From Podarcis cretensis (Eukaryota): DNA of 64,000 nt. Below the pieces are notes generated by a model. It ran no database searches and was not told the DNA's origin. It saw nothing but the letters and a program-made list of their open reading frames with translations. Below are positions 32,101 to 35,100 of the stretch, one piece after another; the stretch's first letter is position 1; every line of letters begins with the position of its first letter. The stretch is taken from contig OX638151.1 in the NCBI GenBank assembly GCA_951804945.1, positions 59,458,001-59,522,000 on the forward strand, given 5' to 3'. Position numbers and translations under genes: made by a program.

Positions 32101-35100
32101 GTAACAAATTGGGCCACGCAATGGGTTTAGACATATTTCTCTCCCTAGCCTCTGGTAGGAACACTGAGGAGGTGCTGTGCTTTGACAGCTTAAAAGGAAC
32201 AATATGGTCACATATTCTAAAGATCCATTGTATATTCCTTCTTTTAAATCAGGTGTGGGGAATGTGGCTGGTGGGACAGATCCTAAAGTCCCCCAACCTC
32301 AGGCCATTTTGACATGGGGCGGGGCTGCCTCTTTGTCAATCACCTCTCAAGCACTGCCCACCAGCAGGACCTGCAAACCATGCTTTTGGCATGAAGTCAC
32401 ATCTTTCCCTGCCTCATATCTGATCTCATATATGACGTCAGATGTAAGGCAGATGGGTGTGGCTTGGGGAAGATGGACCCAAAGGCCAAATAACACCTGC
32501 AGCCCACCACTGCTTTCAATGTTCTGCAGGATCACCTGATACTTTTACTGTCCTTTTATTATTCTTTAAATTTTGCAAACTGCTCTGATGCTTTTATTGT
32601 GGAAGATTGGGGTATAAATACCCTGAAAACAACTAACTAACCTCCATTATCCAAGGACACCAAAAAACCTGAGTACTCAAAAGTGGGGGTAGCGTGTTTG
32701 TAAAAAGTTATACGGATAAGGAGGAATATAGCTGAGTGAAGTTGCGGTTTTATCATTTCTGCTAAAGAATGCTATAGCTTCATTATTATTACTTTTCAAT
32801 GCAAACCTGTGTTTCTGCACCAAAAAAGTGCTTTTCTTGCCTTTAGTCATCCTGAATCATAAGGGCAATGTGTTTCCCCTTAATATTTTGCCAGTTTGGA
32901 CACTGGGGACCAGGACACTCTGTCCAAACACTTATTAGAACATCCTGTTGGCAAATAATTGAGGAGCGGAGGAGAAGAGAAGAGAAGGCCAATGAACTAT
33001 GCATTTCAGATGTTATGGTGGAGGAAAACATGCCATGCTGACTGCAACCTCATGGGAGCCAGAAGGCCTCCGTCAGTGATAACTCTTGGACTCACAGACT
33101 TTTGGTGGATTCTCAAAAGAACCCTTTTAGTACAGCGGTCCATTGTGGCAGCCCACTTCCTCTTTGCCTCATCCTCTTCTTCCAGCAGACATCGCCTCAA
33201 ATCCTGCTCTTCAGCTTTGCTCAGTGTCCTGTCAGTAACTGGCCGCACCAGATGTGACAGGTTCAGGTGACTGTAGAGACTTCTTTCTACCACATACGTG
33301 ATATTGAACTCGCTGACAGAGTTGCGCCCTCGAAGCCTTCTGTTTGGGAAGCCACAGCCTCCTCCTCCTCCTACCCCCTTGGCTTTGTGACGAAGCAGCT
33401 GCAGGTCACAAATTGAGGGTGATATGTATTTCCTAGCAGGGCGCTGGCAAAGAAAAGCTCTAGAACACGAGTAGTTAGAATCTGTCTTTTTCAGTCGGAT
33501 CTGCTTCCTGACACTCTGGATTTCCTCAAAGGATACCAAGACATGGTGCTTGCGCCTGTTGTCATAAAAGCAAACGCTTTCTTTACTTACCCCGTGGTTC
33601 AGAGAACCAAGGTTCTTCTTCATCTCTCCATCAGTCAAGGAGCGGCAAACCTTTGGAGTCTTCTCCTCTTCTGGGTAGGAGAAAAATGTTCCAAGTTTCT
33701 TGGGGGGTTTGATAAGGCCACGGCTTTCAGATTTACTGAAGGTCTTGAGCAATTTCCTGTTAGTACCCCAAGTATCTAGGCTGCTCGATGAAGGAGATGT
33801 GGTGAGTGAGTCAGAGTCCTCATCTGGCTGTTTCTCAGTAGAGCTATCTGAGTAAAATTGCTTCTTGTGAACTCCAGAATAAAGTGCTGATCTGTCATCT
33901 GGTACTGGAGAGCTGTCAAGGGAATGCTCATCTACACCTACAAGGAGGGAAATAGCACATTAGCTTTCACATACTTAACTATGAGTGTGAAAAGAAAGCA
34001 ACAGAGGTGCACCCCCTCCAACCGAAGAGGTATGTGGCCATTCTCCTTTTCTGAAGAACAGAACCATCTGAGAGATACCAAGCAGTGATACAAATGTCTG
34101 GAAAACAAGGCAGGGATACTGGTGTACACATCTCAATATTCTTAATTCATTTTTAACAGAACAAATCATTTCTAGCTTTCATTTTATAAAAGGGAAAAAG
34201 GCTCTTTGTAACAAAGTATTTCTTTAACATTATTAGGACAGAAAGAGTAGAAAAGAGCAGAGGAGCAAAAAGGAATCAAAACATCACAATTCCATTTAAT
34301 ATGCATTTAATAAAACTTCAGTTATGGTTAATGAACTATTACAAGGGTGGGCAGCCTGTGCTCCTCCAGAGATTGTTTGACTCCCAACAGCTCCAGCAAG
34401 CCTGGCCTACAGTCAGGGTTGATGGGAACTGACATGCCAACTCCCACAGTCTGATTGAAAAAAGTGCTCTGCCTGCTATTTGGAGATCTTTTTTTATCCT
34501 CTTTATATAGTAGACAGGGGGATCCTTTATCTCCAGTCTTAGTGCTATGAACCACAGCGCTAAGATCAAAGATAAGATCCTCTGACTGCTATTTACGAGT
34601 ACAATAGGCCCACAACTTGCATGCATTTAACTTGTGCACATTCAGCTTTATGCATGTGGCAAATAAAAGAAAATTAAAAGGGGGTGGGGTTCCAGGAAAA
34701 AAATGATTTTAGTGATCCCACCGCCATTGTACCAAATGGGTTTTGACTATATGTGATTTTGGCTTTAGGCATGATCCCTAGAATGGTGCCCCATGTTAAG
34801 TTGTGGGCCTACTGTAAAAGGTAGCATTACCACCCACACCCTACACTCATTTGCAGGAGTGAGGTTGGGAGAAAATGCTGCCCTTTACTTTCCCCAGAAC
34901 GATCTGTGTAAAGTGAAAGGGAGCACTTCTAGCCACACCCCCACCCACTGCAGCACTGAAATGGGGAGGGATGGAAGTGCTGCTTTATAATGTTTAGCCA
35001 CCCCTGTTTTACAGGATATGCTGTCCTAGGTAGGAAAGGGTATGACTACAGAAACCAGTGGGTCTTTTGCAAGTCTGTGATTATAAAAGTCAGAGTTAAA

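Follow-up and report, generated by a model that had tools for sequence, protein, structure and literature searches.

Two conserved in-phase donors of SASH1 exon 10 and a candidate docking segment before SPIDER

Introduction

SASH1 counts among the candidate tumour suppressors and is also a gene of pigmentation disease. Its canonical protein (UniProt O94885) has 1247 amino acids and carries the SPIDER region at residues 400-554, an SH3 domain and two SAM domains, SAM1 and SAM2 (PMC13467429). Section 3 of this 2026 review presents just the 1247-aa form, and the strings 'isoform' and 'splic' do not occur in the review's main text; a term search of PMC10252437 for the same strings also gave no occurrences. 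In the literature that we searched, we found no description or function of a longer isoform, and supplementary splicing tables or subscription papers could list the event. We also found no papers mentioning the human record NP_001333438.1, which contains the segment analyzed here, or the NM_ numbers that we take to match it. A band of ~110 kDa that PMC2360597 describes as a possible splice variant is a poor candidate for a longer form, as it is smaller, not larger.

The locus analyzed here is in Podarcis cretensis, and by "the window" we mean the whole 64-kb stretch of DNA around it. It contains the same gene as the canonical form, with the same downstream domains, and differs in an in-frame segment inserted immediately before SPIDER. 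Short-form proteins, with which the canonical form was compared by its description, join the residues HG directly to RTCSF, so the segment is indeed missing from the short form, as a preliminary description of this DNA had stated for the canonical human protein.

Results

Two donors in one open frame

In the open reading frames of the window, the minus-strand frame 33959-33006 is open over 317 codons. It contains most of the features that define the two forms of the transcript:

33591..33937, minus strand: part of SASH1 exon 10 common to the short and long forms, 347 nt
33585..33590, minus strand: proximal donor GTAAGT (short form), translated as V-S in the long form
33096..33590, minus strand: in-frame exon extension of 495 nt and 165 aa (P0001), phase 0; hereafter, the insert
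33090..33095, minus strand: distal donor GTGAGT (long form)
33006..33095, minus strand: read-through tail past the distal donor, 29 open codons and a stop; intronic, not conserved across classes
28676..28747, minus strand: exon 11, the start of SPIDER (RTCSFGGF), whose acceptor is common to both forms

Exon 10 begins at 33937, preceded by a TAG acceptor, and the final base of its shared part is 33591, in the context CACGGG followed by GTAAGT. Between 33590 and 33006, no GTRAG site occurs apart from the proximal and distal donors. The arrangement is thus that of an alternative 5' splice-site isoform: both consensus donors share one phase, and the frame between them is open. Exon 11 begins at 28747 with RTCSFGGF. 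On re-reading the exon coordinates, donors and open frame, we arrived at the same two phase-0 donors 495 nt apart that the preliminary description had reported, as well as the same joining of SASH1 exon 10 to exon 11 at 28747, and the peptide segments that it quoted are present in the translation. Its estimate of ~1e-4 for the chance that the frame stays open was of the right order: taking stops to be as frequent as in the downstream intron (0.0547), we obtain 9e-5 for 165 codons and 2e-5 for 194 codons.

In GC content, the insert (0.49) resembles the shared exon (0.46), unlike the intron (0.39). Ten coding blocks lie downstream of exon 10 within the window, which fits this exon's number in what we take to be a 20-exon gene. 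The insert segment occurs once in this genome and is therefore absent from the SASH3 and SAMSN1 paralogues. Separately, two AATAAA hexamers are found on the minus strand at 32598 and 32560, ~410-450 nt beyond the stop that ends the read-through frame at 33006; intronic polyadenylation is possible there.

Distribution and conservation of the insert

Residues 384-548 of P0002, a SASH1 isoform predicted in Podarcis muralis, match the insert with 100% identity. A search with the insert found 279 proteins among 527 candidates, ranging from lizards to teleosts, and the best 120 of these 279 matches, at 63-100% identity, come from squamates, birds, turtles, mammals, amphibians, lungfish, coelacanth and tarpon. 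The tarpon copy, used as a query in turn, gave 225 matches, of which the best 120 are mostly teleost sash1a. In human, the insert comprises 163 aa of NP_001333438.1 (isoform 6, 1130 aa, P0123) and is joined to RTCSF. RefSeq NP_ records are curated and transcript-based. Given the P. muralis isoform, the 279 database proteins and the human record, the insert can be called neither a 'hidden' module nor, as the preliminary description also allowed, perhaps just an automated prediction.

The motif RTCSFGGF is present in 92 of the 121 proteins compared and lacking in the other 29; in 90 of the 92 it is joined directly to QKS at the end of the insert, and the other two are gene models with extra read-through residues. 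The deepest split that the insert spans is that of ray-finned and lobe-finned fish, ~430 million years ago; no shark or lamprey protein is among the matches listed (the best 120 of 279 and the best 120 of 225). From 1.84 billion representatives, a profile search retrieved 12 matches, all of them SASH1 exon-10 read-through ORFs or fragments, and thus no remote homologue outside SASH1 and no invertebrate or paralogue copy of the insert. When metagenomes were scanned for orthologous DNA, eight pattern matches were obtained, none of which was confirmed.

Conservation is concentrated toward the end of the insert. With P0002 as the reference, identity to macaque and tarpon, respectively, is 89 and 84% in the core of the insert (residues 470-548 of P0002), 87 and 81% in SPIDER, 77 and 56% in the shared part of exon 10 and 48 and 37% in the Pro-rich linker. 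Across 17 diverse copies of the insert there are 37 invariant columns, of which 33 fall within insert residues 84-165.

Several observations concern the proteins in which the insert is found. Three divergent fish copies (P0403, P0404 and P0405), possibly second teleost paralogues, keep both of the conserved blocks described below and both V-S donor readings, but between these blocks they carry either a deletion or insertions rich in Ser and Gly. In NP_001333438.1, the insert is paired with a short N-terminus that begins just before exon 10, and the N-terminal region of longer forms is absent. Conversely, several of the SASH1 isoforms predicted for lizards, birds and fish (P0148, P0142 and P0273 among those noted) have an extended N-terminus, the chicken protein P0027 has a third, N-terminal SAM domain at 4-63, and some fish records are named SAMD5; these N-terminally longer isoforms are likely SAMD5-SASH1 read-through gene models.

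Annotation and conservation of the two splice forms

In P. muralis, both junctions are annotated: the short protein P0288 (1338 aa), in which HG is joined to RTCSF, and the long protein P0148 (1503 aa) differ by 165 aa. Donor conservation can be followed at the protein level, since GTRAGY is read as V-S when it is translated. Of 272 long-form homologues, all 272 retain the proximal V-S, and V-S follows QKS in 27 of 28 read-through proteins, while the 28th ends there. Beyond the distal donor, the tails differ in sequence and length between classes (16-113 residues among the short read-through ORFs). Based on these counts and on the unlike tails, coding constraint stops at the distal donor and, as judged from this protein-level reading, both donors are kept from bony fish to mammals. 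The truncated product ending at 33006 that would arise if neither donor were used, which the preliminary description had raised, finds no support here, given the lack of conservation in the tail past the distal donor.

The relative abundance of the two forms is a different matter. Among the best 120 of 1594 matches to the shared part of the exon, 107 are short, 9 long and 4 other, and the 69 members listed for long-form clusters comprise 62 long forms, 6 short forms and 1 fragment; these tallies count annotations, are influenced by the clustering and do not measure expression. We checked the junction in five multi-exon proteins whose source is a Logan assembly (P0122, P0305, P0382, P0394 and P0395), and all five are short, so the long form of SASH1 may be minor. 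Annotation and conservation are the grounds on which we infer that the distal donor is used in P. cretensis. The insert is presumably translated in this lizard, and the choice between the two donors would be regulated.

Predicted structure and possible binding partners

The insert can be divided into the following parts:

33342..33590, minus strand: insert residues 1-83, basic (net +10), variable and predicted to be disordered
33264..33341, minus strand: block A, residues 84-109, conserved, an Arg-rich stretch followed by ITYVVERSL, with a weakly predicted short helix at 97-108
33096..33218, minus strand: predicted long helix, residues 125-164, an acidic half followed by block B; candidate docking helix

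Block B comprises residues 143-165. It is conserved, has a net charge of +7 and a hydrophobic moment that peaks at 0.69, and is invariant at positions from K145-W146 to L159; K164-S165 is also invariant among the 17 diverse copies. The spacing between blocks A and B ranges from 23 to 59 residues over 296 proteins (40 residues in 157 and 33 in 104), and two fish copies have Ser/Gly-rich insertions there. Two blocks at variable spacing are as expected of linear docking motifs.

An AlphaFold2 model of the insert, based on an alignment of 17 sequences, has a pTM of 0.19 and a mean pLDDT of 54.9; it shows no globular fold; a weak helix spans 97-108, and a long one, at pLDDT 64-80, spans 125-164. 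In a model of full-length human isoform 6 (mean pLDDT 47.7), the same long helix is predicted and again no globule, and this model, in which SH3 is unfolded, is too poor for contacts. Because the models are of low confidence and SH3 itself is unfolded in the full-length one, they give only a weak indication that the insert lacks a globule. Together with the variable spacing of the blocks, the pTM nonetheless goes against the folded module with a hydrophobic core that had initially been proposed.

The Pfam match to SPIDER begins at residue 548 of P0002, which is the last residue of the insert, and the insert is thus placed just before the SLY region, where the preliminary description had located a long isoform with an uncharacterized segment. 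The insert does not belong to a known domain by any comparison that we made. Pfam yielded no family for P0001, with a best E-value of 0.11 over 17 copies; the local copy of Pfam does not contain PF26285, and the read-through ORFs holding the insert have no precomputed Pfam assignment. In searches with the insert, PDB sequences gave no significant match (best E-values 0.25 and 0.072), Foldseek gave no match at E <= 0.001 with the low-confidence insert model, and the ESM Atlas gave nothing significant (best 0.79). We consider the GRAM/PH-like matches in the ESM Atlas (0.75-0.79) to be chance similarities below the threshold of recognition, and the PDB match to histone H3 (E 0.072) to be compositional. 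An RxRxxT kinase site before block A was also discarded, since the Thr varies (N, P, A, S). A motif SLYxHL, which we take to be ITIM-like, is kept in 269 of 273 proteins; matches of this kind are common, and it is thus a lead only.

Of the partners that can be named for block B, Ca2+/calmodulin is the best candidate, and on this motif comparison we still think it an improbable one. When compared to the motif definitions in Table 1 of PMC4076516, the Trp of block B anchors 1-12, 1-14 and 1-16 motifs in all four proteins scanned (from four species), which is weakly specific. For the 1-14 class, block B has hydrophobic anchors at positions 1 and 14 and a net positive charge. In common with the Ca2+-dependent calmodulin-binding helices of this class, as PMC4076516 tabulates them, it has a Trp anchor preceded by basic residues, is hydrophobic at 12, 14 and 16, carries a net positive charge and is predicted to be helical. 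It differs from them in having Cys at position 8 and an invariant Asp at position 6. The strict 1-8-14 and 1-5-8-14 patterns fail in block B, where Cys occupies position 8 and [FAILVW] is required. A relaxed 1-5-8-14 pattern, which we widened to Met and Cys in view of this sequence, gives one charged match per protein; we set it aside, as the published strict pattern fails. The IQ motif [FILV]Qxxx[RK]Gxxx[RK] is not found, with an IQ-like match just in zebrafish, across the junction (one of four proteins). A calmodulin meta-predictor flags block B as well as 43-52% of each whole protein. Separately, this genome has two neighbouring intronless genes for 149-aa calmodulin-like proteins (L008:1462-1908 and L005:1468-1917; G000:C10, 5.91-5.93 Mb), with a third EF-hand match between them.

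Discussion

We consider it probable that distal use of the two conserved in-phase donors of exon 10, which adds 165 residues before SPIDER, provides an isoform-specific docking site, which is predicted to be mostly disordered and to include one basic amphipathic helix. The choice of donor would switch in an extension of the scaffold's disordered, motif-bearing center, blocks A and B would fold upon binding a partner, and the long scaffold would thereby recruit a protein that is out of reach of the 1247-aa form. The preliminary description thus stands as regards a conserved in-frame segment before SPIDER, and not in its hidden, folded and truncated-product parts.

A first alternative, which we regard as unlikely, is that the insert alters localization or phosphorylation, not partners. 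The basic clusters would then be an extra nuclear-import signal, consistent with the net charge of +10 in residues 1-83, and the distal junction, with K-S-R-T-C-S in place of H-G-R-T-C-S, would improve an AGC-kinase/14-3-3 consensus site by placing a lysine, in the invariant pair K164-S165, five residues before the first SPIDER serine. However, conservation in the insert is lowest in its basic N-terminal half, and this reading does not account for the hydrophobic residues that are invariant in blocks A and B. SASH1 is described as binding 14-3-3 via Ser90 and a further basal site (PMC2773716).

It is also quite unlikely, in our estimation, that the 80 conserved residues are a small folded domain or dimerizing helical unit that AlphaFold missed given the shallow alignment. 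In favor of this reading, the identity of the insert core equals that of SPIDER, and the model, based on just 17 sequences, has a helix of 40 residues at pLDDT 64-80. However, the pTM is 0.19, Foldseek with this low-confidence model found no match at E <= 0.001, and in the divergent fish copies the stretch between the blocks accommodates both deletions and insertions rich in Ser and Gly. In a last alternative, which is very improbable, long SASH1 would be rare or exist at the annotation level, through retention of the intron or read-through to the stop at 33006, and conservation would serve RNA-level regulation. Short forms do prevail (107 of the best 120 of 1594 matches), and the two AATAAA at 32598 and 32560 lie past this stop, but protein conservation reaches the distal donor and fades beyond it, where short read-through ORFs have tails of 16-113 residues, and human NP_001333438.1 uses the distal junction.

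The docking-segment reading can be extended to a bolder one, which is speculative and which we doubt. In this extension, a 430-million-year-old splice switch would add a Ca2+/calmodulin-binding helix before SPIDER, long SASH1 would be a calcium-regulated scaffold, and calmodulin bound across the junction would mask the first SPIDER phospho-site. Pigmentation or cancer variants in the insert would then go unnoticed, since diagnostics use the short reference transcript. More generally, variants in the insert would presumably be read as intronic on that transcript, and the insert adjoins the hub of SASH1 disease variants.

Our overall judgment is that this is a real isoform, annotated yet apparently unstudied. 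Its existence is already known, as it is in databases including human RefSeq, and the gap concerns the function of the 80-residue conserved core. A segment that is conserved like SPIDER and present in a RefSeq isoform could carry a new partner, and this can be tested directly. The addition of disordered, motif-bearing segments through in-frame alternative donors is common, and the isoform is already in databases, so the degree of surprise is moderate.

Among known systems, human SASH1 isoform 6 (NP_001333438.1), together with predicted long XP_ isoforms in many vertebrates, is the closest. It has the same insert (163 versus 165 aa) and the same two junctions; there is no essential difference, and the lizard form is its orthologue. 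The other close comparison is with SPIDER (PF12485), a disordered, motif-bearing region. The insert adjoins SPIDER and is likewise conserved and, by prediction, largely disordered, but it matches neither PF12485 nor any other Pfam family. By analogy, SPIDER is likely to be the model for how the insert works.
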